A DNA stretch of 13,023 bases from an uncultured archaeon (GTDB taxonomy: Archaea; Asgardarchaeota; Lokiarchaeia; Sigyniarchaeales; Promethearchaeaceae), in contig CAYRPF010000082.1 in the NCBI GenBank assembly GCA_964426185.1, positions 1 to 13,023 of the forward strand, in the 5' to 3' direction. Shown in pieces: positions 1 through 13,023 of the stretch. The first letter of the stretch is position 1. Each line of letters starts with the position of its first letter. A program made the translations under genes and the position numbers. The notes under the pieces were generated by a model. The model saw only the letters and a program-made list of their open reading frames with translations, did no database searches and was not told the DNA's origin.

Positions 1-124
1 ATCTTCGCAGCTTTTTTATCACCTTCATATAGCATGGTACACCCCCACATGCGTGGGGAGAATTGTTTGACGACATCAAGCGAAAGATTCCTGGGCGGTA
101 CACCCCCACATGCGTGGGGAGAAT
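1..124 (-). CRISPR. Leader-proximal end of a type I-E CRISPR array (continues beyond the left edge)
   Basis: Identical 28-bp repeats at 36-63 and 97-124 (minus-strand reading ATTCTCCCCACGCATGTGGGGGTGTACC; hairpin CCCCAC-GCAT-GTGGGG), 61-bp period. Spacers of 33 bp at 64-96 and 3-35. Bases 1-2 (AT) match the expected end of the next repeat. Orientation taken from similarity to the E. coli I-E repeat and the position of the leader and cas2. Confidence 0.97.
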
Positions 125-322
125 ACTAACTTTTTCGCCCAATTTTCCAATTCGGAAGAAATTTTTAAAGATAAATTTTTTTAGTGATTTCCTTCCTCAG
201 CACTAATAATACAATAACATTTTCCTATTTTAAATATTTGGAGAAGAAAATTCGTTCGATATTTGCCAGTTTTTAGCTCTTTTGAACAGATGAATTTTCA
301 CAACTTCTAAATTTAATTAGTT
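125..322 (-). promoter_or_regulatory. CRISPR leader
   Basis: AT-rich non-coding 198 bp between the cas2 stop and the first repeat. Ends ...AAAAAGTTAGT at the repeat junction. TATA-like TTTAAAAA at 169-162 (minus). Confidence 0.8.
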
Positions 323-1501
323 TTAGAAAAGCACTTGTTCATCCAATCCTCCTGATTTTAACAAATAAAAATACAATCCTAAAATAATTTTCAAGAGATT
401 AAATCTTCCGATTGGAATGATATTCTTCTGAATTTGTGTAACTGCATCACCCTTAAACATTTGATAATATTCCGAAAATTTAGAGGAATATTGTAGCGTC
501 AAGTCTTGGTTACACTTAGAATTAAATAATTCAATTAATTCTTCAATGGTAGAAAAGTGTTCAGAAATATCATAGATTTTTAAGAATTCTGGTGGTGTAA
601 ATTTATTCTCCTTTGAAAGAAGCGAAAATTGGGAAAGAATTTTTTCCCGATGCATAAGAATGAGTTGATCGATGTTTTGGAAAAATGGCCAAAATTGAAA
701 TAACAATGCAGGAGCTTGGGATCTTTGTCTTGTCATATTAAATCCTTGATGAAAACTCAGAGTAGGACATTGTGTTTCTTGAGAAACATAAATTGAACAT
801 AGACCGATAACATTAACATAACCTTCAGCGGCTTTTGGAGAATAATCAGTGGTTTCCAAAGAGAAGCTCAAAATTTTTTCCGATTTTTTTTCAGGGTGAT
901 TTTTCAATTCCATATTCCATAGATCTAGACAAAATTTGCTTATATTTTGAATTTCTGATATTTCAGAGTGAGCCCAAACTCTTTCTGGGGGGTATTCAAA
1001 ATATGAAGATTTTGCGGCGTAGTTTGAAATATATTGGTTGTTTTCCAAACGGATGCTGAATGTTCGGGTAATTAAGTTGGGAGGAAAATTTTTCGGGGTG
1101 GGCCAGCTAATTTTTGCAGCCATACCGGGCTTTATATCCAGACGATTTGCAAAATATGTGAATGGATTGAATTTTGTAGAATTTGTTGAATTTTTTTTGG
1201 CATTATTAGTAGAAGGAGCAGTAGGTATTGTCATTAAATTAATTCCTTCGAAATTACGGGAGGTTCTACTGAACGATCCGATTGATTTGATTTGATATTT
1301 TTGTTCGTTAGCAGCGGGTTCAATAAAAATAGCACCTCCCTTAAGTATATTTTTAGATATCTTTTCCCAAAGAAGATCTCTAACTAGACGTGAAAGAGTT
1401 CCAATAAACACACCTGATTTTACTTCAATCATCCAGCGAGTAATTTCGCCCCTTAAACTGGCTGGAAATTTTTCGGTGATGAGAATAGATAATTTTGTCA
1501 T
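323..1501 (-). CDS. cas2: Type I-E Cas2 fused to a long C-terminal extension containing a degenerate RNase H-like (YprB/DEDD 3'-5' exonuclease-like) domain
   Basis: aa 1-93 carry Cas2e motifs (P.SLRGEITRWMIEVKSGVFIG, VRDLLW, NEQ.Y, R....FEG..L). The gene is directly downstream of cas1, with RBS-like GGAG upstream. aa 210-380 contain LSFSLETTD..., IYDI and GRFNLLKI, which align by eye with the FDIETTG, HIDL and YNxxDV motifs. The Cas2 call is firm; the C-terminal domain call is moderate. Confidence 0.92.
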   Translation of the reverse strand: MTKLSILITEKFPASLRGEITRWMIEVKSGVFIGTLSRLVRDLLWEKISKNILKGGAIFIEPAANEQKYQIKSIGSFSRTSRNFEGINLMTIPTAPSTNNAKKNSTNSTKFNPFTYFANRLDIKPGMAAKISWPTPKNFPPNLITRTFSIRLENNQYISNYAAKSSYFEYPPERVWAHSEISEIQNISKFCLDLWNMELKNHPEKKSEKILSFSLETTDYSPKAAEGYVNVIGLCSIYVSQETQCPTLSFHQGFNMTRQRSQAPALLFQFWPFFQNIDQLILMHREKILSQFSLLSKENKFTPPEFLKIYDISEHFSTIEELIELFNSKCNQDLTLQYSSKFSEYYQMFKGDAVTQIQKNIIPIGRFNLLKIILGLYFYLLKSGGLDEQVLF

Positions 1502-1522: not shown

Positions 1523-2542
1523 TTAATCACTTCTCTCAAGTTTCTCAAGTTTCTCAAGTTTCTCAAGTTTCTCATAATTAATGCCACCTTTTATGAGGCC
1601 CTCATCGGGATCCCAAATATCTCCAGCTACGGCTTCTCCTGCGTCAATTTTTAAATCCGAGAGCAAGGAGGGAATCGAATCTGCATTTTTGTCATCAGAA
1701 CGAGAGAAATCCAACAAGATATCAATATCTGGGAGAATTCGTTCAATTAAGTGAGTTTGATAAAATAAATCACGACAGGCTATTCGCACCCGTTGTTCTA
1801 AGTTAAAAGGACTTTCGGCAACCATCTGAAACACTAAAGGAATAATTATTTCTCCTTTGTAAAGGTCCCCAATATCGAATACAAACGAAAGCTGTTGCCC
1901 CGTATGAATGAAGCCTAATGCGGGTGAATAACCAGCAGACACAATGGCAGCATGACAGAGGCCATATAGACACGAATTTGCGATTGAAAGTGCGCGATTC
2001 AACGGATCACCTTCATCCCATTTTGTTGGATTATATTTTCTACCTTTCCATTCCAACCCTGCAGCTTCGGCTGCATCTTTATATATTTTTCGCATGCGGG
2101 CGCCTTCCATTCCCCGCATCTGTTTTATCGTTAAGTCGGGTGAGAGAGATTCTTTAAATCGCAACATGTACATGCGTCTTACTACCTCGGTGCGTAACTC
2201 TTTATCGGAAACTAATTTCGCTTGGTGAATTATTTTTTTAGCGGATCGTGTTTCTCCGGTTCCTAATGCATAAAATCGCACTCCATGTTCACCCAGCCAA
2301 CACACAAGACAACCATTCCGAGCCAACGATTGGATAGCAGAGTGAGTGATACTGGTTCCAGGGCCGAGAAATAATAGAGAAAGATTTGCACATGGTACAG
2401 GTGTTTTTCCAAATCGGTCAAAAATAGCGATAGCTTTGGAATCTTGTTCAATTTTACAGTGTTCTACATATAGATATGAAAGTCCGTCACGAAATTTGGG
2501 TAATTCACGTAAATTTTGGGGCATTTGAATTCCTTCCATCAT
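1523..2542 (-). CDS. cas1: Type I-E CRISPR-associated integrase Cas1
   Basis: Motifs LSYLYVE, LGPGTSITH, MRGMEGARMR (catalytic E), GYSPALGFIHTG (H) and SFVFDIGDLYK (D) are all intact. The true start may be the ATG at 2524 (GGAAGGA upstream). Confidence 0.98.
   Translation of the reverse strand: MMEGIQMPQNLRELPKFRDGLSYLYVEHCKIEQDSKAIAIFDRFGKTPVPCANLSLLFLGPGTSITHSAIQSLARNGCLVCWLGEHGVRFYALGTGETRSAKKIIHQAKLVSDKELRTEVVRRMYMLRFKESLSPDLTIKQMRGMEGARMRKIYKDAAEAAGLEWKGRKYNPTKWDEGDPLNRALSIANSCLYGLCHAAIVSAGYSPALGFIHTGQQLSFVFDIGDLYKGEIIIPLVFQMVAESPFNLEQRVRIACRDLFYQTHLIERILPDIDILLDFSRSDDKNADSIPSLLSDLKIDAGEAVAGDIWDPDEGLIKGGINYEKLEKLEKLEKLERSD
1535..1574. repeat. 9-bp tandem repeat (CTCAAGTTT x4 plus partial) in the cas1 3' end, encoding (EKL)4
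   Basis: Perfect copies at 1535, 1544, 1553 and 1562, then CTCA. Confidence 0.95.
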
Positions 2543-2976: not shown

Positions 2977-3843
2977 TTACGACAGCATCAACAATCCGAA
3001 TCCATAGGCTTTCGCAGGACCGATACCATTGATTAAAGTTTGAATAAAGGTTTCGGGATCAGTGACGACCAAAATTCCATCAAAAATAACCGAAAAGAAG
3101 GTCAATTTGATCCTTTTCGCTTTTGATTTCTTATTTAATTTCTCATCTTTGGTTTCATCATTTAGTACTTTGTACCCTGCAAATTTTCCTTCGGGTATCC
3201 CAACTACGTTAATTTTACTCAGATCTAAACCGGAATCCGCACCATTTTCAACACCGTTTTTTGAAGATGAAAAGTGGGAAAGTACTTGCTCAACAGAAAA
3301 GCGATTTGGATGATAAAGATCTTTTTTCAACTGGACTTCTTGTATTTTAAAGCCACCGCTTTCAGCCTTGCGAATCAACCACTTAATCTGATCTTCTTCC
3401 TTGTAAAGCGGCATTCTTCTACCGTTGGATTTCTTGCCTGCTAAGCGTTCTTTTTTAGTGGTAGTACCCACCTTCTTCGTGACGTTTGCTTTCAACCTGA
3501 AGTGAAATTTCTGCCCACTGGCAAATTTAAAGGTAGAATAATCGACCTCTTTAACTGCAACTCCTGGGTTTTCATCTGATGGATTGGTGTTAGTGAAATT
3601 TACCGTATATCCTGGTTTTAAGTGGGACCAATTCGGTTTTTCTTTAGATTGAACTAGCAGTTTTGGAAAAATGTCACGTTTAGATGCATCCAGATAATAA
3701 AGTACTTGAAGATTTTCCCTACATGACTCCGAATGTTGTCCAGAAAAGGCGTTCATTATAGTTCGATGCATCTCATGACAGTTTCCCAGATCACGACGGG
3801 CTTTAGAATTACGTGGATTTAGATACAAACATGAAAGATACAT
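2977..3843 (-). CDS. cas6e: Type I-E crRNA-processing endoribonuclease Cas6e (Cse3/CasE)
   Basis: MYLSCL.L N-terminus, MHRTIM catalytic His, LLVQS...P.W, F.FRLKAN, and C-terminal Gly-rich loop GIGPAKAYGFGLL. Confidence 0.97.
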   Translation of the reverse strand: MYLSCLYLNPRNSKARRDLGNCHEMHRTIMNAFSGQHSESCRENLQVLYYLDASKRDIFPKLLVQSKEKPNWSHLKPGYTVNFTNTNPSDENPGVAVKEVDYSTFKFASGQKFHFRLKANVTKKVGTTTKKERLAGKKSNGRRMPLYKEEDQIKWLIRKAESGGFKIQEVQLKKDLYHPNRFSVEQVLSHFSSSKNGVENGADSGLDLSKINVVGIPEGKFAGYKVLNDETKDEKLNKKSKAKRIKLTFFSVIFDGILVVTDPETFIQTLINGIGPAKAYGFGLLMLS

Positions 3844-3844
3844 T

Positions 3845-4615
3845 TTATTTCACCTCCGGAGAATTTCCACTTTGTTTGTCGCTTGTAGCGGTAATTTCAG
3901 CCATCCCAGGGTTTTTCATGTATTTCACTTGTACACGACGGGCTCTGTACATTCGACTCCGCTGTAAAGTTATTTCGTCATAACGAATTTCAGACCCCGA
4001 AATATCTTCCAGCACACAACGAAGTAAAGCTGGAGGTTCATTTCGGGGATCTTTGCGTTTTGGGAGATATGAAGGAAAATATGATCGAGGTTCCCAAGGA
4101 ATCCGAGCCAATGCATCATCTATAGAAGCATATTCGCGAGTTAAGCCTTCAAATACCGGACGAGTCGGAACACAACTTTTTCGCCCCAGATATAGCAGCC
4201 ATTGTGGTGATTGAAGAGCTTCTGCTATTTTCTTCAGTAGTTCACTATCACCTTGCAATACGACTAAAAAAGAAGCGTCTTCAAGATACATTTTCGGAGT
4301 CAGAATGGTATTCGATTCTTTTCTTTCTTTTCTATCCGCTTGTAGTACCTTTCCTGTAATTGTCTGAAAATCCCGAAGCAAAGTTCCTGGGATTTCAGTG
4401 CGGACACCCATTAATAATCGGGAAGATATTTTTTCTAATTCTGCATCAAATCGAGGCAAGCCTAAAGCACAACCAATTAATCCCACGATTCCACTTTTAG
4501 AAGGTTCCGTTCCAGTATCCCGCATATCCCAGCGAGATTCAAGCCCCCATGATTGGAGCGGTCCTTCTAACCGCATTACTAACAAAAGGGGGTTTTGTTC
4601 AGTAATTTTAATCAC
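3845..4615 (-). CDS. cas5e: Type I-E Cascade subunit Cas5e (CasD)
   Basis: RLEGPLQSWG, R.T...PSKSGIVGLIGCALG, DFQT, YLEDASF, LYLGRKSCVP. The start overlaps the cas7 stop; exact start codon uncertain. Confidence 0.97.
   Translation of the reverse strand: MIKITEQNPLLLVMRLEGPLQSWGLESRWDMRDTGTEPSKSGIVGLIGCALGLPRFDAELEKISSRLLMGVRTEIPGTLLRDFQTITGKVLQADRKERKESNTILTPKMYLEDASFLVVLQGDSELLKKIAEALQSPQWLLYLGRKSCVPTRPVFEGLTREYASIDDALARIPWEPRSYFPSYLPKRKDPRNEPPALLRCVLEDISGSEIRYDEITLQRSRMYRARRVQVKYMKNPGMAEITATSDKQSGNSPEVK
3850..3857 (-). promoter_or_regulatory. Ribosome-binding site GGAGGTGA for cas6e
   Basis: GGAGGTGA lies 6 nt upstream of the ATG at 3843. GGTGA/GTGA motifs also precede the ATGs at 8202 and 5765. 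Confidence 0.8.
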
Positions 4616-5774
4616 CTTGAAGAACAGATGTCAAAGAATCAACTAATTCTTGAATATTTTCTTTCTTTTCAAAATTTTTGGGGATTGACTCCTCAAGATT
4701 GTTGAAATCACGACCTTCAAACCAGAATTGGTGGGTTGCCTCAAGATTGAAACGTTTAGAAAGAGTATTGATGTGATTTACTAGCTTTTCAACAGAAACT
4801 TCTTCTAAATCCTTCTTACCATAAGGTGAAGCAGGAGACACAAAGGCATTTGCAAAACTAACAGGACATTTCATAGGGCGAACTACCACAGCCACTACTG
4901 CAGGTAATTGATGAGCAGCGAAAGTGTTTTGCTTACCAGACGGTGAAGTAAAAATGGCCGCTTTCAAGAATGCTTCAATGGTTTTAACCATTAAATTTCG
5001 GAGTTCAGAATCATTTTTGCTCTCAAAATTGTCTATAAATTGCTCTGTATCGAAAGAGAAATATTTATAGAAGCAAGATGAATTAAATTCGATATCACCC
5101 ATCATTGCCGAGCCTTGATCCTCCATATCTCCTCCTCTTTGTTGAAGATCATCAACGGCAGTAAAGAAGTCAAATTCATTGAATATCTTGTTGGTTGAAA
5201 TTGCATGAGCAACCTGCATGGAAGCTTCTTTATCGACGAAAGCTTCGGAGGTGATCATACGACCAAACAAGGAAATGTCTGCAGTAATAGGAATGATCCC
5301 CATCTTCTTTATTTCATTTTGAAGATCTTTTGCCTTCTTTTTCTTGAAATCAGCAATATCTTTGCTATTTTTGATAGCTTTTTCAATAACATCAGTTACC
5401 TTCTCTATATCTGCCTGTGAGAAGAACATAATTTGCTTTGTTTTATAATCTTTTGTTTCTTTTGCATCTTTATTTCCAAATCCAGTTGCTTTTTGAGCAG
5501 CTTCTATAGCAAAATCTTCTGAAATACCTCGTTCAATCAATTTTTCCTTAACGAGATCAGGTAAATGACGGGTTCTAATTCCAATTCCAAAATCTTTCAT
5601 GGTTTCTTGGAAAATGGGTGATTTTCGAATGGCATATTTCAAACTTTGACTCGAAACACGAGCTCGAGGATAACCCCCGAAATTGCAGCGTTTAGGACTC
5701 CCAGTATCATCTCGATTGAGATTATTGGGAGCATAGTTGTGGAGCATGTGAATTTCTACTAACATGGTTTTCAC
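4608..5774 (-). CDS. cas7e: Type I-E Cascade backbone subunit Cas7 (Cse4/CasC)
   Basis: EIHML...PNNLNRDDTGSPK...FGG..RARVSSQSLK, DISLFGRM, QVAHAIST, DFFTAVDD, PSGKQNTFA, SFANAF. Likely start is the ATG at 5765. Confidence 0.98.
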   Translation of the reverse strand: MKTMLVEIHMLHNYAPNNLNRDDTGSPKRCNFGGYPRARVSSQSLKYAIRKSPIFQETMKDFGIGIRTRHLPDLVKEKLIERGISEDFAIEAAQKATGFGNKDAKETKDYKTKQIMFFSQADIEKVTDVIEKAIKNSKDIADFKKKKAKDLQNEIKKMGIIPITADISLFGRMITSEAFVDKEASMQVAHAISTNKIFNEFDFFTAVDDLQQRGGDMEDQGSAMMGDIEFNSSCFYKYFSFDTEQFIDNFESKNDSELRNLMVKTIEAFLKAAIFTSPSGKQNTFAAHQLPAVVAVVVRPMKCPVSFANAFVSPASPYGKKDLEEVSVEKLVNHINTLSKRFNLEATHQFWFEGRDFNNLEESIPKNFEKKENIQELVDSLTSVLQGD

Positions 5775-5813: not shown

Positions 5814-6506
5814 TTAATTAGTTTCATCTTTACTTTCTGATGAAGAATCTCGTGACGCTCCATAATAGGCGCGTGCCCATTCTTTTTGAACTCTTCGACT
5901 ATTATCTAAATCGCGACTCCAGAAATAAAGATCTGTTAGCAAATTATACCATGAAATACCAACTTGCTTACTGGCAACCAAACTAACACATTGGCGTAAA
6001 CGGTAGGAAAATTCTCGAAATGAATCCAAATCACCGTATTTTGGATCAAATGAACTAGAATCCAAGGAACTCTCCAATAAATTTTGGAATCTATGATCAA
6101 TACTATCGGGTTCTCCAAATTGCTTCTTAGTTAAAGCCATCGATTTTCCAAAGTTCCCCGTTCCAGACAGAGGTTGGATAGGGAATAAAGTCGCGATTAA
6201 ATAATAGATTGGTTCTAATCGGCTATTTTGCTCTGAATAAGGCAAAATCTTGTAAAACGCTGACATTGCTGGAATTGAGTCTCCTAATATGGTTCCAGAA
6301 GCGCGTTTAAGTACGGCATACATGCCTCTATTTGAATCTTCCAACTTTTCTAACGAAGAAAGAAATTTTCGAAAGACTTCTGTTTTATGGTGAGTTCTTT
6401 CTTTCAATTTTTTTTCTTCTCCCGTGGATTTATTCGAAGAAGCTTGCTGCATTTTTTGCGATTTTTTTGATTTTTGCTTATTTTGCGAGGGGTTAACACT
6501 TTCCAT
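5814..6506 (-). CDS. cse2: Type I-E Cascade small subunit Cas11 (Cse2/CasB)
   Basis: Lies between cas8e and cas7. Motifs G..A.LKR, NFG.S, RF..LL, RLRQ...L, W..L..DL..W and V...WA..YY. AGGAG RBS. About 40-aa K/S/Q-rich N-terminal extension. Confidence 0.93.
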   Translation of the reverse strand: MESVNPSQNKQKSKKSQKMQQASSNKSTGEEKKLKERTHHKTEVFRKFLSSLEKLEDSNRGMYAVLKRASGTILGDSIPAMSAFYKILPYSEQNSRLEPIYYLIATLFPIQPLSGTGNFGKSMALTKKQFGEPDSIDHRFQNLLESSLDSSSFDPKYGDLDSFREFSYRLRQCVSLVASKQVGISWYNLLTDLYFWSRDLDNSRRVQKEWARAYYGASRDSSSESKDETN

Positions 6507-6615: not shown

Positions 6616-8214
6616 TTACGGTTGTGCTGGCATTAATCGCTTAGCTAACCCATAAACCTTGGGTCTGTAATCATTCCGAACTTCTTCAGCTTTTTTTAAA
6701 TATTCAGCTGAACCATCGAAAGAATCTAAGATCTCCTCTACCACCGAATTTGCAGTTTTTACCAGTAAATCACCCCAAAAAGTTTTAATTTTTTCACTAA
6801 CGTTCGGGTCATCTAAATTCTCTTTTAGAAAATGCACTACTTTCTTTTCAAACGGAAGATGCAGTCGATTCCAGTAACTGGTGGTCGCTTGTTCCCTAAT
6901 TAATTTGAATCCACTGGAATTGCCTTTAGTATCACGAGGGTACAAATGTTTCAAAGATGTATTAATATAATACTCTACTAATTCTGCAGCATCAATTAAT
7001 TCTTGAATTATTTGGCCAGAATGTTCAGAAAAGACGATTTCCTTTGGAAGTGATAAGATAGAACGGCGCCAATTCTTTAATTTGGCTTTATCAGATTCGA
7101 GTACATATAAATTTAAGGAAACTCGCTCCAATTCTAGATCTTGAGAATCTTGGTTAATTTCTCCAAGTTGCTTAATTATTGTAGGACGATTGAATCGAAT
7201 GTGTGTTTTTTCATTTTCATAATCTTTTTCGGTTAATAGCATCAAGGGGCCGTAGTCACGCCAAAAATCCTTGCCAGGGGTATACCGAATAGGAAATCTA
7301 CCCTTTTTTGTGGTTCGATAAGCAACGTTTGGATCACGCCAGATATTGGCATCATCAACAAATTTCCAACCGGGTTTGAATACGATTTGCTTTACCAAAA
7401 TTTGATTGGGCTCATTAGAATACCTACAAACACCCTTCTCTTTCATCGGAGTCAAAACACAATAACGCGGCATCCAGGTTAAACCGTGGAGATATGAAGT
7501 TACCATTTTAATTGCCTTAGATTCTACAAATTCATTTGAACGCCACGGAACTTCAAAGGGTTCAGCAGGAAAATCTGTATAGCCCGTATATGTATTTAAT
7601 AGAAGTGTTTGAAAAAGGTTTTTACCCTCTATCAATTCATAAATCGGCGGAGTTCCGTTAATACTTGGTGAGAACCCGACACCCCCCGCGGTACTAAAGG
7701 CAGGCAAAGCACATAAAGCTCGAGCGCAAATTTTTGCACTGACTGCGATTTCATCTTCAAAAAAATGATGAAAAAATATAGGATTAATCCCAGATGGTAA
7801 ATGGTGGAAGAGCTTACACACCGATCTTAAATCCTTTTTTTCTATATTATGAGGAGATCCTTGGTAAAAAGGATGCTCGGGATCAAAAAGATCGAAGCGA
7901 TTTTTAATCGATATCAATTCATTTGGAATTGTTTCGTCAAATTCCCCTCTTTCCAGAAGGTCTTTGAGATCTTCCAAGTTTGAGATTTTGTAACAATCCA
8001 TGATAAGGGCAATAAGGAATCGGTATATCCCAAATTCATGCTCAGGTGAAGCATCTTGGATCTGTTTTATATGATGAGCATGCCGGAAAACTTCGATGAT
8101 ATTAAGCTCCCTTGATTTTCCTGTCTCGTCTAAAATCGGAATCCAAGCTTCTTCCAGTAGGTTAAAATGCACTTCAGGAAGTTCTACAGTGTTGTTAGTC
8201 ATTTTTTTCACCAC
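6616..8214 (-). CDS. cas8e: Type I-E Cascade large subunit Cas8e (Cse1/CasA)
   Basis: FNLLEEAWIP, RFDLFDPEHPFYQ, ARAL, GG.G...S, G.NLFQTLLLN, TW.PR, DP and WRD motifs. Likely start is the ATG at 8202 (GGTGA upstream). Confidence 0.96.
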   Translation of the reverse strand: MVKKMTNNTVELPEVHFNLLEEAWIPILDETGKSRELNIIEVFRHAHHIKQIQDASPEHEFGIYRFLIALIMDCYKISNLEDLKDLLERGEFDETIPNELISIKNRFDLFDPEHPFYQGSPHNIEKKDLRSVCKLFHHLPSGINPIFFHHFFEDEIAVSAKICARALCALPAFSTAGGVGFSPSINGTPPIYELIEGKNLFQTLLLNTYTGYTDFPAEPFEVPWRSNEFVESKAIKMVTSYLHGLTWMPRYCVLTPMKEKGVCRYSNEPNQILVKQIVFKPGWKFVDDANIWRDPNVAYRTTKKGRFPIRYTPGKDFWRDYGPLMLLTEKDYENEKTHIRFNRPTIIKQLGEINQDSQDLELERVSLNLYVLESDKAKLKNWRRSILSLPKEIVFSEHSGQIIQELIDAAELVEYYINTSLKHLYPRDTKGNSSGFKLIREQATTSYWNRLHLPFEKKVVHFLKENLDDPNVSEKIKTFWGDLLVKTANSVVEEILDSFDGSAEYLKKAEEVRNDYRPKVYGLAKRLMPAQP

Positions 8215-8374: not shown

Positions 8375-11300
8375 TTACTTAATCTTTTGAACAATAAAAC
8401 CTTCTTCTTTTGTATATTTAAGTTTTACTAATTCATCTTCCTTATTTATTCCCTCCCAAATTAAGCTGTCTGATGAACCGGTTGGTTCGGACTTCGCGAT
8501 AATTACGAAGTAGCCATACATCCATTTTGGAGTCCGACAAATGGGTTCATATCCTTGCTCTGGTTTAACATTTTCAATGCTGGAGTACCTGATAGATAAG
8601 GAACGATTCAAAAGTTCCTCTTTCCATTTCTTCGAAACTCCTGTTTTATTTTCCAATTGGGTATATTTTTGATGAATCAAGCTTCCTTCTTCGATCAAAA
8701 TTACCGCACACGAATCTTCAATTAATCGAGTTTTTGCTTTAAATTTGGATTTTGTTTCATGATCTTCACCTTCTTCGAATGCATCTCGATAAACCTCCGC
8801 ATAACGATATGAATCCCTAACTGGAGGGGGAATTAAATATTGAAGTGTTTGTCTACTGGATTTTTCTTCACTTTCTTTGTATTTTCTAAAAAGATCGTTT
8901 AATTCACTCTGGACTGATGAGAGATAACAAGGTTTAGCACCACGAGGAGATGGAGGGAACGATATTTTCGGTTGATAAACCCGTTCAATCAATTCTCTTA
9001 GGTCTTGGGGAAATTTCACTTCAAATTGAAAACCGTTCTGAGTCAAAGCATCGAGTAAAATTTGGGTTCGAATGAGTAGGTACGGTGAATAAACATAACG
9101 AGACTTTCCGGTGATTTTCAAAATTTTTCCCGAAGTCTTTGATAAATCTGTCGAAACTGACGAATCTAACGAATCTGATGCATTATTCAACCATGATTTT
9201 TCATTGATAATAGGTCCAAAATAAAAAAATTCCCAAAATTCATCAGCCGAATTATCTTCAACAATTTTTCTTCCAACCGTATTATTTTGGGAGAAAGAAG
9301 CCCCAAAAATGAATATGCACGGAAAAGGATAAAGAGATGCAGTTGGTCGATTTTGGCGAGAATGTCGCCATACCCTTCCCATTCTTTGAACCAATAAATC
9401 GATTGGAGCCAATTCAGTAAACATCCCATCAAAATCTAAATCTAAACTCTGTTCAACTACCTGAGTTGCAACTAAAATTGTATTTGCAGGCCGAATAAGC
9501 TTTCCATCACCATTGTTTTCTGATAAAGCCTTCCCAAAATATTTTTTAACCTGATTTTCGATTAAATTGCGATCTTTGACTGTATAACGGCTGTGAAAAA
9601 GCAATACTTGGGTATTTTTCGGAACCCAAGACTCTCTTAACGAAGAACTTCCATCTAATACTTCTTTTAACATCTTGTAGAGTTCTTGTGCTGTTGAAAC
9701 AGTGTTTATCAGAACGCAGTGACATCCAAAATTCTTCTCGTGTTCGGGAACATCTTGACTTTTTAGTATTTTATATAAAGTATTCACGATAACGGAACCC
9801 ATTCGAAATACATTACCTTCTGTTCCAGGTAAATTACAAATACGATAGGTTTTTTGTTCCAGAGAAATCGAGGGATCTTCGGTAAGACTGCCAATATTTC
9901 CCTCACTATCCACAAATGAAATCATAGGATAAGGTTCTAATGGAATATCCGAGCCAGACTCTGGTATTTCAAGTAATTCATCATTTTTTTGACCAATACT
10001 TTGATTTGAGTGAAATTGTTGATCTAAACCATTTAAAACACCATCTAAAACACTATCTAAAACACCATATTTTTGTTTGGCTTCTAAATAATGATTAAAT
10101 ATGTGCTCCTTTTTATTTTCAGGAAGTGTAGCCGAGAGAAGAATCAAAGGAATATCTAATACTGCAGCCCATTCTAACAAACGGTCGAAGATTTCCATCA
10201 TATAGGCATCGTAGGCGTGAACCTCATCAACAATTAATATTTTTCCGGCTAATCCTAATAATCTGAGAAATCCGAATTTTACGTTTAAAACTGACATTAA
10301 TGATTGATCAATAGTACCTACTGCCAAAGGGCTTAATAGGGCACGCCTTTTCGGCTCAAACCAACGAATTGCATCAAAATAATCTTGCATGACATCTTGA
10401 TGATGAGGATCAATAGAACCAAAGACATCAGATTTGGTCATTGTCAACTTATCTACGATCCACGAACGCCCATGCACTAATTGATTGTAAAAAGTAAAAA
10501 ATCGAAAAGCGGGATTGGAATTTTTTAAAAATTCTTGAATCCGGTGATACATCTGATTCGACGTAGCCGTTGTAGGTAAAGCTATATAAAAGCCAGAAAG
10601 ATACGATTGCCTTGAATTTCTTCCTGCCACCATCATTTTACCTGCAATGGTTAGGGCAGCTTCAGTTTTTCCATCACCCATTGGAGCCTCGAGAATCACT
10701 ATTTTTTCCTGTCCAGTTAGCCTATCCGACAATTTCTGAATGGGGAATAGATTTGTGAAATTATTTTGCGCAAAAAGAGTTCTCAATGTAACATTTTCCG
10801 GTAAAAAATCGGAAAAACGGGTAATAAAACCCATTTTCTCTAAAACTGCCTTCGCTTGCACACGGGCTTCTTCAATATGTTGCTGCAAAATCTCTTTCAA
10901 ATCTCCTTCCGAAGGAATCTGGTTGAGACTTTGCCAGTGAAATAATTCCTCATTGGATGCAAGCCAATCCGCCAAAACTAAAAGACTTTGCAGCGATATT
11001 CCCACGATACTTGCATGTTTAATCTGAATTTTATTCCAAACATTTGGGTGGCAATCTAAAATCTCTAGAAAAAGGTTCCAAATATTTTGACGAATAGATC
11101 TCCACTCATTTTTAATAACTTGATGCTCTTCACTGTTTTGAACATCAAAGCGCCCATGATGACCTAAAATAATTTTTCGAATTATTGATTTCACTCGCCT
11201 GGGAATTTGGTAAGAAGAAGATAAATCACTAAAAAGTTTCATTCCTAAACCTGGATGATTGCTCTTTTCAGAAGTAAAATTTATGGGAAATCCATAGCGT

Positions 11301-11749
11301 TCCAAGGCAGTTGTAATTATACTTCCCCCGCGATTTTGAAAGTGGGGAGATATTTTCCCCAAATCGTGCATGGCAAATAAGAACCAAACAAATGATTGCA
11401 CCTCTTTTTCCTCGCTGAAATTATTCTTCTCAAAAGAAATATTATTATTACTATGCAAATGAGATGAAAAATCCTCCAAGCGAATCAATTGCCAGATCTT
11501 ATTAAAAACACTCCGAAAGGCACTTATTCTTGCCAATTCTTGCCCAAATACCATTACATCTGCCATATGATAAACAGCAGGATAAAAATCATATAAAGAA
11601 TTTGGAGTATCACCAGTGGTTTTTCCCCAAAGACTTAACAAACTCAGGCCGTTTGTATTGAAACTCACTTTTGTTCTCCGTGATTTTATCTTACCTATAG
11701 AGATCCGATTTGCATTTTTAAATTCATCGCTTCTTTGTTCATTATCCAT
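8375..11749 (-). CDS. cas3: CRISPR-associated HD nuclease/SF2 helicase Cas3
   Basis: HD domain: LWGKT, HMADV, HDLGK, GHHG, LADWLAS. Helicase: APMGDGKTEAA, LPT, DEVH, SAT, HSR, ATQVVEQSLDLDFD, QRMGRVWRH. All motifs intact. The true start may be the GTG at 11668 (GGAG upstream). Confidence 0.98.
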   Translation of the reverse strand: MDNEQRSDEFKNANRISIGKIKSRRTKVSFNTNGLSLLSLWGKTTGDTPNSLYDFYPAVYHMADVMVFGQELARISAFRSVFNKIWQLIRLEDFSSHLHSNNNISFEKNNFSEEKEVQSFVWFLFAMHDLGKISPHFQNRGGSIITTALERYGFPINFTSEKSNHPGLGMKLFSDLSSSYQIPRRVKSIIRKIILGHHGRFDVQNSEEHQVIKNEWRSIRQNIWNLFLEILDCHPNVWNKIQIKHASIVGISLQSLLVLADWLASNEELFHWQSLNQIPSEGDLKEILQQHIEEARVQAKAVLEKMGFITRFSDFLPENVTLRTLFAQNNFTNLFPIQKLSDRLTGQEKIVILEAPMGDGKTEAALTIAGKMMVAGRNSRQSYLSGFYIALPTTATSNQMYHRIQEFLKNSNPAFRFFTFYNQLVHGRSWIVDKLTMTKSDVFGSIDPHHQDVMQDYFDAIRWFEPKRRALLSPLAVGTIDQSLMSVLNVKFGFLRLLGLAGKILIVDEVHAYDAYMMEIFDRLLEWAAVLDIPLILLSATLPENKKEHIFNHYLEAKQKYGVLDSVLDGVLNGLDQQFHSNQSIGQKNDELLEIPESGSDIPLEPYPMISFVDSEGNIGSLTEDPSISLEQKTYRICNLPGTEGNVFRMGSVIVNTLYKILKSQDVPEHEKNFGCHCVLINTVSTAQELYKMLKEVLDGSSSLRESWVPKNTQVLLFHSRYTVKDRNLIENQVKKYFGKALSENNGDGKLIRPANTILVATQVVEQSLDLDFDGMFTELAPIDLLVQRMGRVWRHSRQNRPTASLYPFPCIFIFGASFSQNNTVGRKIVEDNSADEFWEFFYFGPIINEKSWLNNASDSLDSSVSTDLSKTSGKILKITGKSRYVYSPYLLIRTQILLDALTQNGFQFEVKFPQDLRELIERVYQPKISFPPSPRGAKPCYLSSVQSELNDLFRKYKESEEKSSRQTLQYLIPPPVRDSYRYAEVYRDAFEEGEDHETKSKFKAKTRLIEDSCAVILIEEGSLIHQKYTQLENKTGVSKKWKEELLNRSLSIRYSSIENVKPEQGYEPICRTPKWMYGYFVIIAKSEPTGSSDSLIWEGINKEDELVKLKYTKEEGFIVQKIK
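10022..10066. repeat. 12-bp in-frame tandem repeat in cas3 (encodes GVLD-SVLD-GVLN-GLD)
   Basis: ATTTAAAACACC (10031), ATCTAAAACACT (10043), ATCTAAAACACC (10055) and a 9-bp partial ATCTAAACC (10022). Confidence 0.85.
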
Positions 11750-11751
11750 TT

Positions 11752-11795
11752 AACAAGTTTATAAATGATTATTTGAAAATATTCAAACATGATTA
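11752..11795. promoter_or_regulatory. Candidate bidirectional promoter/operator between cas3 and the mini-array
   Basis: Palindromic TATA-like TTTATAAA (11758-11765), inverted repeat TTTGAA-AATA-TTCAAA (11772-11787) and flanking direct repeat ATGATTA (11765-11771, 11789-11795). Confidence 0.5.
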
Positions 11796-11884
11796 ATTCT
11801 CCCCACGCATGTGGGAGTGTACCATGAAGCATACTATCTATTGAAAGGGATATTAAATTCTCCCCACGCATGTGGGGGTGTACC
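11796..11884 (+). CRISPR. Single-spacer CRISPR mini-array, divergent from cas3 and inverted relative to the main array
   Basis: Repeat 11796-11823 (one G>A change at 11816) and perfect repeat 11857-11884. The 33-bp spacer 11824-11856 is ATGAAGCATACTATCTATTGAAAGGGATATTAA. Same 61-bp period as the main array; no third repeat 61 bp away on either side. Confidence 0.95.
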
Positions 11885-12145
11885 AAGTTGTCTTTGCTTA
11901 TTCTAGAAATATGGCTCGGGAAGAATCGATTTCAAATTTAGATATGCAGAGTAGTTTATCATAAAAAATACACGTATTGACTTAATAAATATAAAAATTG
12001 AGAAAAAGCAGCAGACTAATTCAATATCAAGACTAACTTCGACAACTTGTATTGCAATAAGAATAAAAGGTTGGGATTTCGGATTTAAAAATAACTGGGG
12101 ATGAATTCATTGAATAAAAGCTTCGATAAAAAGACAAATCGAAAT

Positions 12146-13023
12146 TTATTCACTGGAATTAAAAACTTCTTTTGCCTTTTTTTGGATTTTTTTCTGGGCT
12201 TTTCTATCATTGTGATAATATGCAACAAGAATCCGATGATGTGTGGATAAATTTCTTATGGAAGAATTTCGTCTATTTTGTAGATATTCAATATATATCC
12301 CTGATGGTCTTTTCTTTAAAATTCGAATTGATTTGAAATCTTGTTCTTCATCGATAGACGGGGTGAGCGGATGAGTTATTCTTATTGGTTTTCCAGGATC
12401 ATGCCTCAGAAATGACCAATGATGTGAAATTTCAGAATCTTGTTGGAATTCGTTAAATAATATGTTCTCTTTTTCACATATTTCGCCCTTTTTAATTTGC
12501 TTTTCAGATATTTTTGTAAATAAATCAAATTTAAAACAATTTTTAATAGGTGTTCGTCTTCTTATTGTATCATATAAGTAATTTAATTCTTCAATTTGTG
12601 ATTGGTTTAGCCCGGTATTTGTTTTTTGTTTTAATATTTCTTGAATGGTTGTGAAAAATGAAGCTTCGGTTATTCTACAAAATTCATTCTCATACCAATC
12701 AGCATCTTTCGTTTTAAAATCCTCCTTTGCAGGTAGAATAAAACCATTGGTAAGGTTTGGATTTGATTTCTGGATATAATTTTGATACAATTTATGAAGA
12801 ACTAAATCATAACATACTGAGGTTTTGTGGATATAAACAATTTTATACATCTGATATCTCGAATATAAAAAATCTTCCAAAGCATCTTGAGATTTTTCAG
12901 AATAACATATTTTATTTTCATAAAGATTAACGAATTTACATATTCTATTAATATCAATATTCCCATAAGGTACTCCTGCAAAATAAGAATCTCGTAACAA
13001 ATAGTCCAATCGATCTGCATCTG
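12146..13023 (-). CDS. HD-superfamily phosphohydrolase (dNTP triphosphohydrolase/SAMHD1-like), C-terminal part; 5' end lies outside the window
   Basis: The frame is open to the window edge and reads DADRLDYLLRDSYFAGVPYG...RYQMYKIVYIHKT, the conserved post-HD motifs of this family. The listed start at 13009 is an internal TTG (Leu). Confidence 0.85.
   Translation of the reverse strand, partial: DADRLDYLLRDSYFAGVPYGNIDINRICKFVNLYENKICYSEKSQDALEDFLYSRYQMYKIVYIHKTSVCYDLVLHKLYQNYIQKSNPNLTNGFILPAKEDFKTKDADWYENEFCRITEASFFTTIQEILKQKTNTGLNQSQIEELNYLYDTIRRRTPIKNCFKFDLFTKISEKQIKKGEICEKENILFNEFQQDSEISHHWSFLRHDPGKPIRITHPLTPSIDEEQDFKSIRILKKRPSGIYIEYLQNRRNSSIRNLSTHHRILVAYYHNDRKAQKKIQKKAKEVFNSSE

Follow-up and report, generated by a model that had tools for sequence, protein, structure and literature searches.

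A type I-E Cas2 of an Asgard archaeon carries a DEDD exonuclease fold that has lost its canonical catalytic residues

The stretch of DNA described here (13,023 nt, hereafter the window) is the whole contig CAYRPF010000082.1, called C82 where contigs have to be told apart. It belongs to a metagenome-assembled genome of an Asgard archaeon of the Promethearchaeaceae (GCA_964426185.1; 3.26 Mb, 92% complete). Hidden Markov model searches reveal a complete type I-E operon on the minus strand of the window, in the order cas3-cse1-cse2-cas7-cas5-cas6e-cas1e-cas2, with CRISPR repeats at 36–124. The gene of interest is the last one, cas2, which encodes a Cas2e protein fused to a C-terminal domain with the fold of a DEDD exonuclease. 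Most of the catalytic residues of this domain have been replaced. It is probably a pseudo-exonuclease that is kept as a non-catalytic part of the spacer integrase, while the trimming of prespacers would be supplied in trans. The following genes and features make up the locus.

8375–11749, minus strand: cas3
6616–8214, minus strand: cse1
5814–6506, minus strand: cse2
4608–5774, minus strand: cas7
3845–4615, minus strand: cas5
2977–3843, minus strand: cas6e
1523–2542, minus strand: cas1e, the partner of the Cas2 fusion, with catalytic motifs present (TIGR03638, 365.6 bits)
323–1501, minus strand: cas2 fusion gene, 392 aa plus stop codon, a single open reading frame (ORF)
125–322, minus strand: presumed CRISPR leader, assigned by position only; 198 nt, AT-rich and without ORF, between cas2 and the first repeat
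36–124, minus strand: start of the main array, with 28-nt repeats at 97–124 and 36–63 and the leader-proximal spacer at 64–96

The main array on C82 is cut by the contig end. The Cas1e encoded next to the fusion contains the motifs RGMEG, FIHTG and DIGDLYK. Among named homologues, the one nearest to the cas2 ORF is a protein annotated as Cas2e from Candidatus Harpocratesius sp. (Asgard, Promethearchaeaceae), and orthologues of the fusion protein at 66–69% identity are found in the assembly of this organism and on one metagenome contig. The metagenome runs that contain the window sequence come from hydrothermal vents and sediments.

An earlier interpretation of the locus, made from the letters alone (the sequence-only reading), had described the ORF at 323–1501 (minus strand) as uninterrupted over 392 aa and its residues 1–93 as Cas2e. 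Both statements are borne out. The N-terminal part belongs to Cas2e by its match to PF09707 (aa 6–89, 82 bits, E 3.3e-23; cut-off 24.7) and to TIGR01873 (48.9 bits; cut-off 33.15), and the gene also has the expected context, directly after cas1e and adjoining the CRISPR array. A model of the full-length protein shows a confident Cas2, a disordered stretch (aa 97–123) and a second confident domain (about aa 130–388), which can be subdivided as follows (pLDDT, predicted local distance difference test).

1223–1501, minus strand: Cas2e domain, aa 1–93 (pLDDT ~90; matched by Cas2e chains of the PDB at E 1e-13)
1121–1222, minus strand: disordered linker, aa 94–127, rich in N, S, T and K (pLDDT <50 for aa 97–123)
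887–1120, minus strand: N-terminal extension of the exonuclease-like fold, aa 128–205, a beta-hairpin and a long helix (pLDDT 93–98)
338–886, minus strand: core of the DEDD (RNase H-like) exonuclease fold, aa 206–388, with a degenerate active site (from structural matches and the family alignment)

The C-terminal domain was thus correctly recognized, but its start had been placed near aa 210, while the models and the alignment to MrfB let the folded domain begin near aa 128. Because MrfB carries the same insertion, which is aligned in the model, aa 128–205 is assigned as a YprB/MrfB-type N-terminal insertion and the linker comprises aa 94–127 only. The linker motif FNPFTYFANRLDIKPG is conserved within the clade, being kept in the three closest orthologues, and R146, S165 and W176 of the extension are conserved across the family. 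The fusion is not an assembly artefact, since over 40 proteins of independent assemblies show it and both domain junctions are bridged, at 99–100% identity, by contigs of separate metagenome runs (which may include the source sample).

The fold of the C-terminal domain was examined with an AlphaFold2 (AF2) model of aa 120–392, built from a 47-row alignment (pLDDT 94; predicted template modelling score 0.91). An all-against-representatives search with this model by VIA-align gave the following matches.

5mdn_B, exonuclease domain of a family B polymerase: Z 12.7, 155 aligned residues, root-mean-square deviation 2.7
8un9_B, core of MrfB (formerly YprB): Z 11.5, 198 aligned residues, model residues 9–269
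1j53_A, Pol III epsilon: Z 9.2, 138 aligned residues
8fyc_K, exonuclease domain of Cas2-DEDDh: Z 8.7, 133 aligned residues

The neighbours of the model in the ESM Atlas are clusters of PF13482, with template modelling (TM) scores of 0.58–0.63. A Foldseek search against the PDB returned RNase T, the Streptococcus thermophilus DnaQ domain, QIP and Egalitarian, all with a poor global TM of ~0.29. In the model, the RNase H-like DEDD fold is present with an N-terminal insertion before beta-1. The same hybrid character has been described for MrfB, which combines a DEDDy-like long alpha-C helix with a long insertion before beta-1 (PMC11194089). Together with the PF13482 matches of 12 of 35 relatives (below), these comparisons support the proposal of the sequence-only reading that the domain has a YprB/RNase_H_2-like, DEDDy-type fold, and not that of DnaQ (DEDDh).

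A phmmer search with aa 100–392 against 1.8 billion representatives yielded 38 representative relatives of the C-terminal region (25 at E <= 1e-10), and a word-indexed profile search added 29 further cluster representatives. The named sources are Promethearchaeota, Helarchaeota, ‘marine sediment metagenome LCGC14’ and, once, Deltaproteobacteria. Among the aligned relatives, 24 of 35 contain Cas2e (PF09707) and 12 of 35 match PF13482 (RNase_H_2; best E 7e-9). The window protein itself (aa 95–392) does not match PF13482 even at E <= 10, so that its homology to this family is established only transitively, through the relatives. Pfam searches with aa 95–392 or aa 200–392 alone gave chance-level matches only, no match to PF00929, the DnaQ-like domain of Cas2-DEDDh, was found in the window protein, and phmmer and profile searches against PDB sequences matched the Cas2 part only.

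The family is Asgard-centred, and since the fused domain comes from a different superfamily branch and not from PF00929, its fusion to Cas2 is independent of the bacterial Cas2-DEDDh fusion. Databases label the proteins plain Cas2e, and no description of Cas2e fused to a YprB/PolB-exonuclease-like domain turned up in full-text searches of PMC and bioRxiv. Stand-alone members of the same family (~255 aa) with intact motifs occur in Asgard genomes outside CRISPR loci (L015 1525–2298, L015 2525–3793 and L014 1492–2253). The fused domain may go back to such a repair-type exonuclease of the host, which Cas2e captured. One stand-alone member adjoins a NurA-domain gene and a NYN RNase gene. Also encoded in the source genome is a canonical member of PF13482 that is more distantly related, keeps its motifs and reads HFDL at the h-x-D-L motif.

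The family consensus reads D-I-E-T-T (ExoI), V-F-N-x-x-F-D (ExoII), an invariant I-x-D-L, and Y-N-x-x-D (ExoIII). In an alignment of 63 sequences (the window protein and 62 relatives), the full DEDDy set (D-x-E, N-x3-D, Y-x3-D) is found in 55 members. At the same positions, where these members have DE/ND/YD, the window protein has SE/HI/FK. The remnants of the motifs, located by means of the family alignment, and the one motif residue that never varies are listed below.

854–862, minus strand: ExoI remnant S214-L-E216 (family D-I-E)
638–655, minus strand: ExoII remnant M283-H-R-E-K-I288 (family F-N-x-x-F-D)
389–403, minus strand: ExoIII remnant F367-N-L-L-K371 (family Y-N-x-x-D)
569–571, minus strand: D311, invariant in 63 of 63 members, intact or dead, and equivalent to the h-x-D-L motif of PF13482

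Every motif assignment of the sequence-only reading (S214-L-E216, HREKIL and F367-N-L-L-K371) is confirmed by the alignment and the nucleotide coordinates. The same holds for its conclusion that three of the four carboxylates are lost while the ORF and the fold are kept: D214S, D288I and D371K are accompanied by Y367F and N284H. From the four carboxylates and the Tyr or His that characterize DEDD exonucleases, only the ExoI Glu (E216) survives. Beyond the motifs, the window protein has the substitutions E323I, R334L, K339S and E362I at sites that are 84–100% conserved among intact-motif members. The pocket is now hydrophobic, with two new lysines.

Three relatives at 45–68% identity display the same kind of loss. 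In the four-member clade of the window protein, the ExoI Asp is S, A or C in three members and the ExoII positions differ from member to member (HI, DD, DN, QK). Six residues are fixed in all four (L215, F326, L334, Q356, K371 and G375), and E216, D219 and D311 are invariant as well. It had been considered that D219 and D311 might complete an active site in place of the lost acids. Both are indeed present. Neither is a clade-specific replacement, however, because D311 never varies, whether the motifs are intact or not, and the position of D219 can be N, T, S, V or F where they are intact. Two further Cas2-fused members (P0016 and P0020) lack the motifs, and all clear losses are found in fused proteins. 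On a quick tree P0016 is separated from the window clade; a single clade of all six dead forms has the higher likelihood and is not rejected by the approximately unbiased (AU) test (p-AU 0.73). The inactivation events thus number one to three, with a single origin and several origins both possible. What is retained in the window protein is the post-ExoI loop (T-T-D-Y-x-P-K-A-x-E-G) and a set of basic residues (R146, K223, R258, K350 and K359), with which the domain may still make some contact with nucleic acid.

The degenerate domain is under purifying selection. For three orthologues with available DNA (L001, L003 and the more distant L004), the proportion of nonsynonymous differences (pN) in the exonuclease-like core is 0.21, against a saturated synonymous value (pS) of 0.78, and dN/dS for the whole gene is ~0.06–0.09. 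All four clade orthologues are full-length and free of frameshifts. The dead domain of the window protein shares 63–66% identity with that of the Harpocratesius locus, which is within the span of values for the functional Cas proteins of the two loci, namely 56% (Cas3), 68% (Cse2), 70% (Cas6e), 76% (Cse1) and 86% (Cas1). The four-member clade has full support, with a stem of 1.46 changes per site and tips of 0.15–0.26 for the three closest members. Such a long stem with short tips fits a burst of change that was followed by renewed constraint.

In the Harpocratesius relative, which also has a dead domain, the array contains 87 repeats and 83 of its 86 spacings are exactly 61 nt. Spacings are regular in 132 of 141 cases in a locus with an intact-motif domain and in 45 of 46 cases in a locus without the domain. 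The 33-nt spacer at 64–96 of the window has an exact match, covering the spacer alone, in the middle of a 1529-nt contig of higher depth (13.9) from run X1. A second exact spacer-only match lies on a 256-nt contig of run X4. These matches, from which the side of the protospacer adjacent motif is not recoverable, are probably a protospacer on a co-occurring mobile element. Given the Cas1 motifs, the regular arrays and the spacer that matches co-occurring contigs, spacers still seem to be taken up precisely although Cas2 has no canonical nuclease site.

A single RNase_T gene of the source genome, located on contig C108, exceeds the Pfam cut-off for PF00929; a weaker homologue of it lies on C65. 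The relevant features of C108 are these.

C108 36–429: seven copies of the CRISPR repeat of the window, at the start of the contig (L039)
C108 493–1056, plus strand: intact DEDDh RNase_T gene, 187 aa, 64 nt past the last repeat and co-oriented with the array

All five catalytic residues of the encoded protein are present (D13, E15, D106, H159 and D164). By the orientation of the repeats, the minus strand of C82 would continue into the plus strand of C108. The next gene on C108 encodes an archaeal ATPase_2/DUF234 protein.

An RNase_T gene is found at two other loci with a dead or absent Cas2 exonuclease domain. In L004 (the P0005 locus, the most divergent of the dead clade) it lies between cas2 and the array. 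The array and RNase_T unit of this locus (L004 2037–2864) is inverted relative to cas1-cas2, with the array-then-RNase_T order kept. Genome G130, whose Cas2 lacks an exonuclease domain, has an array of 47 repeats that runs up to an RNase_T gene, with a TatD DNase gene behind it. The Cas2e of this genome (L062, G130:C163, 8689–9318; 210 aa) has another C-terminal extension, with a weak match to a SWIM zinc finger. For comparison, L061, where the domain has intact motifs and the trailer of the array can be seen, contains no RNase_T gene within 10 kb. G227 serves badly as a control for the intact-motif state, as its cas1 and cas2 look damaged and only 500 nt are available beyond the array. In G143, G253 and G255, contigs start with an RNase_T gene, but these genes are truncated and without repeats and were rejected as array-linked candidates. 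As a whole, the pattern in which RNase_T presence complements a dead or absent Cas2 exonuclease domain is suggestive.

How the fusion may work can be outlined as follows. The protein is the Cas2 component of the type I-E machinery that integrates spacers, tethered by a flexible linker of ~35 residues to a YprB/MrfB-like, PolB-exonuclease-like DEDD domain. In most Asgard relatives, the complete DEDDy site presumably trims the 3' overhangs of prespacers, by analogy with the Cas2-DEDDh trimmer-integrase. In the lineage of the window, the two-metal site has been dismantled and no canonical exonuclease action is predicted, because D214, N284, D288, Y367 and D371, as well as E323, R334, K339 and E362, have been replaced. 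The retention of a folded and constrained module instead points to a non-catalytic role in the Cas1-Cas2 complex, either in its architecture or in the handling of duplex ends and overhangs through the retained post-ExoI loop and basic residues. The sequence-only reading had suggested protection of the 3' ends of prespacers as one such role. We infer that trimming would most likely occur in trans, with the DEDDh RNase_T gene of C108 as the prime candidate.

Several observations weigh against this reading. With E216, D219 and D311 still in place, the domain might have a site that uses one metal or is non-canonical in another way. The loss of R334 and K339 may mean that the old mode of DNA binding is gone, which would mildly weaken the case for end binding. 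The long arrays could in principle pre-date the inactivation. As for the trans nuclease, RNase_T homologues are common in the order (40 of 154 genomes), and among 19 loci of such homologues in other genomes of the order none has CRISPR repeats or cas genes within its 1.5-kb flanks. The link to the arrays consists of three loci against one or two usable controls, and the junction between C82 and C108 was deduced from the identity of the repeats and from orientations that fit together; it is not part of an assembly.

A more specific version of the same idea, which we put forward only tentatively, is that of a split trimmer-integrase: the fused exonuclease was inactivated and repurposed as a module for prespacer ends or architecture, and trimming moved to the DEDDh gene at the array trailer. 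As this nuclease is co-oriented with the array, its expression could be coupled to read-through of the precursor CRISPR RNA. The Asgard I-E systems would then form a series from intact fusion, via dead fusion with a trans nuclease, to no fusion with a trans nuclease. It is also conceivable, if rather improbable, that the dead domain acts as a platform on which the stand-alone DEDDh enzyme, or some other nuclease of the host, docks to the integrase. It is common for pseudo-enzymes to act as scaffolds for active paralogues, and RNase_T stands beside the array in three loci with a dead or absent Cas2 exonuclease domain; one of these, however, is G130, where Cas2 has no exonuclease-like domain at all, which argues that a platform is not required. 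A role in targeting the leader, in place of integration host factor (IHF), had been offered by the sequence-only reading and, understood as binding or bending of the leader, is very unlikely. Integration in the I-E system of Escherichia coli needs IHF, which archaea are not known to possess. Asgard fusions with intact motifs nevertheless face the same need, so that a loss of catalysis confined to this lineage would be left unexplained, and no correlation between any feature of the leader and the dead state was found.

The sequence-only reading had further allowed that the domain is simply decaying. The catalytic residues are gone, and the Cas2 of G130 demonstrates that an Asgard I-E system can have a Cas2 without any exonuclease domain. 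Simple decay is nonetheless unlikely, and a neutral relic on its way to loss hardly probable at all: four full-length orthologues free of frameshifts, pN far below the saturated pS, a conservation equal to that of Cse2 and Cas6e, the confident AF2 model (pLDDT 94) and the new residues that are invariant in the clade all speak against it. The domain might finally still be a nuclease with a non-canonical site, using one metal at E216/D219/D311 or a lysine-assisted mechanism (K287/K371), which we regard as unlikely. The three acids are invariant in the clade, and the D172A and D262A variants of MrfB kept some activity on single-stranded DNA (PMC11194089). In Cas2-DEDDh, on the other hand, a single mutation of the ExoI type (D132A) abolished processing (PMC10284694). 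Three of the four clade members have S, A or C instead of the ExoI Asp, the residue that bridges the two metals, and the ExoII residues differ within the clade, so that no alternative site is conserved. Moreover, the behaviour of D311 and D219 in intact members does not single them out as parts of a new site. A pseudo-exonuclease that acts non-catalytically in the integrase is therefore preferred over these alternatives.

Some further features of the window lie outside the fusion gene. A 9-nt tandem repeat in four copies (1527–1574) gives Cas1e a C-terminal (EKL)n tail (…EKLEKLEKLEKLE…); the Cas1 of the window has 339 aa, that of Harpocratesius 327 aa. The gap between cas6e and cas1 (2543–2976) is 434 nt of non-coding DNA and holds a 16-nt tandem repeat (2705–2760). 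The same gap is comparable in Harpocratesius (~650 nt). Directly upstream of cas3 lies a mini-array of two repeats and one spacer (11795–11885), inverted relative to the main array and with a single mismatch in one repeat. Upstream of this mini-array, an ORF of 287 aa (12146–13009, minus strand) with a weak match to HD_assoc_2 (E 2e-5) reaches the contig end.

That Cas2 can be fused to a DEDDh domain of the DnaQ type is established for the I-E systems of bacteria (PMC10284694; PDB 8fy9, 8h18). The known counterpart of the window protein is the Cas2-DEDDh trimmer-integrase, from a Megasphaera NM10-related system (PDB 8fy9–8fyd) and, as DnaQ, from S. thermophilus DGCC 7710 (PDB 8h18). Both have an N-terminal Cas2e, a linker and a C-terminal 3'-5' exonuclease fold of the DEDD superfamily, and both are encoded directly after cas1e. 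Their Cas2 parts align at E 2e-11 and their exonuclease folds superpose at Z 8.7. The window domain differs in being YprB/PolB-like and of the DEDDy type, with an N-terminal extension of 80 residues and a Y-N-x-x-D pattern at ExoIII, and in being closer to PolB and MrfB than to DnaQ. The catalytic residues that the bacterial enzyme requires (D132A is dead, PMC10284694) are replaced in it.

MrfB from Bacillus subtilis (YprB, 8un9; PF13482) shares the fold, including the long insertion before beta-1. It is, however, an active stand-alone DEDDh repair enzyme with a tail of tetratricopeptide repeats (PMC11194089). The window domain is fused to Cas2, derives from the Y-x3-D type of ExoIII, has lost its catalytic residues and does not match PF13482. 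The exonuclease domains of family B DNA polymerases (5mdn, 4flt, 8d0b) are the best structural matches (Z 10.8–12.7), but the window domain has no polymerase context and is unrelated in sequence beyond the fold (9–15% identity). In one member of these polymerases, Pol alpha (POLA1), the exonuclease domain is inactive (PMC11194089). This domain is the nearest conceptual precedent for a DEDD fold that is kept structurally.

Trimming in trans is known from E. coli, where the prespacers of Cas1-Cas2 are trimmed by host exonucleases of the DnaQ/ExoT type (introductions of PMC10284694 and PMC10470216). The arrangement proposed here is similar in that the integrase would measure and protect the prespacer while a separate DEDDh enzyme trims it. 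Unlike in E. coli, the candidate nuclease is encoded at the trailer end of an array with the same repeat, in the same orientation, and the integrase retains another, dead exonuclease. Among Cas2 fusions, no counterpart of this dead version has been described.

The best model for the measuring and trimming of new spacers in CRISPR systems without Cas4 is provided by fusions of Cas2 with an exonuclease. The family of the window protein represents a second, independently evolved and Asgard-centred fusion of this kind. Its dead version, which occurs naturally and is maintained by selection, can separate the effect of the presence of a tethered domain from the effect of cutting. The array-linked DEDDh gene is a concrete candidate for the missing activity, which makes this locus a testable case of a function that may have been handed over from cis to trans.

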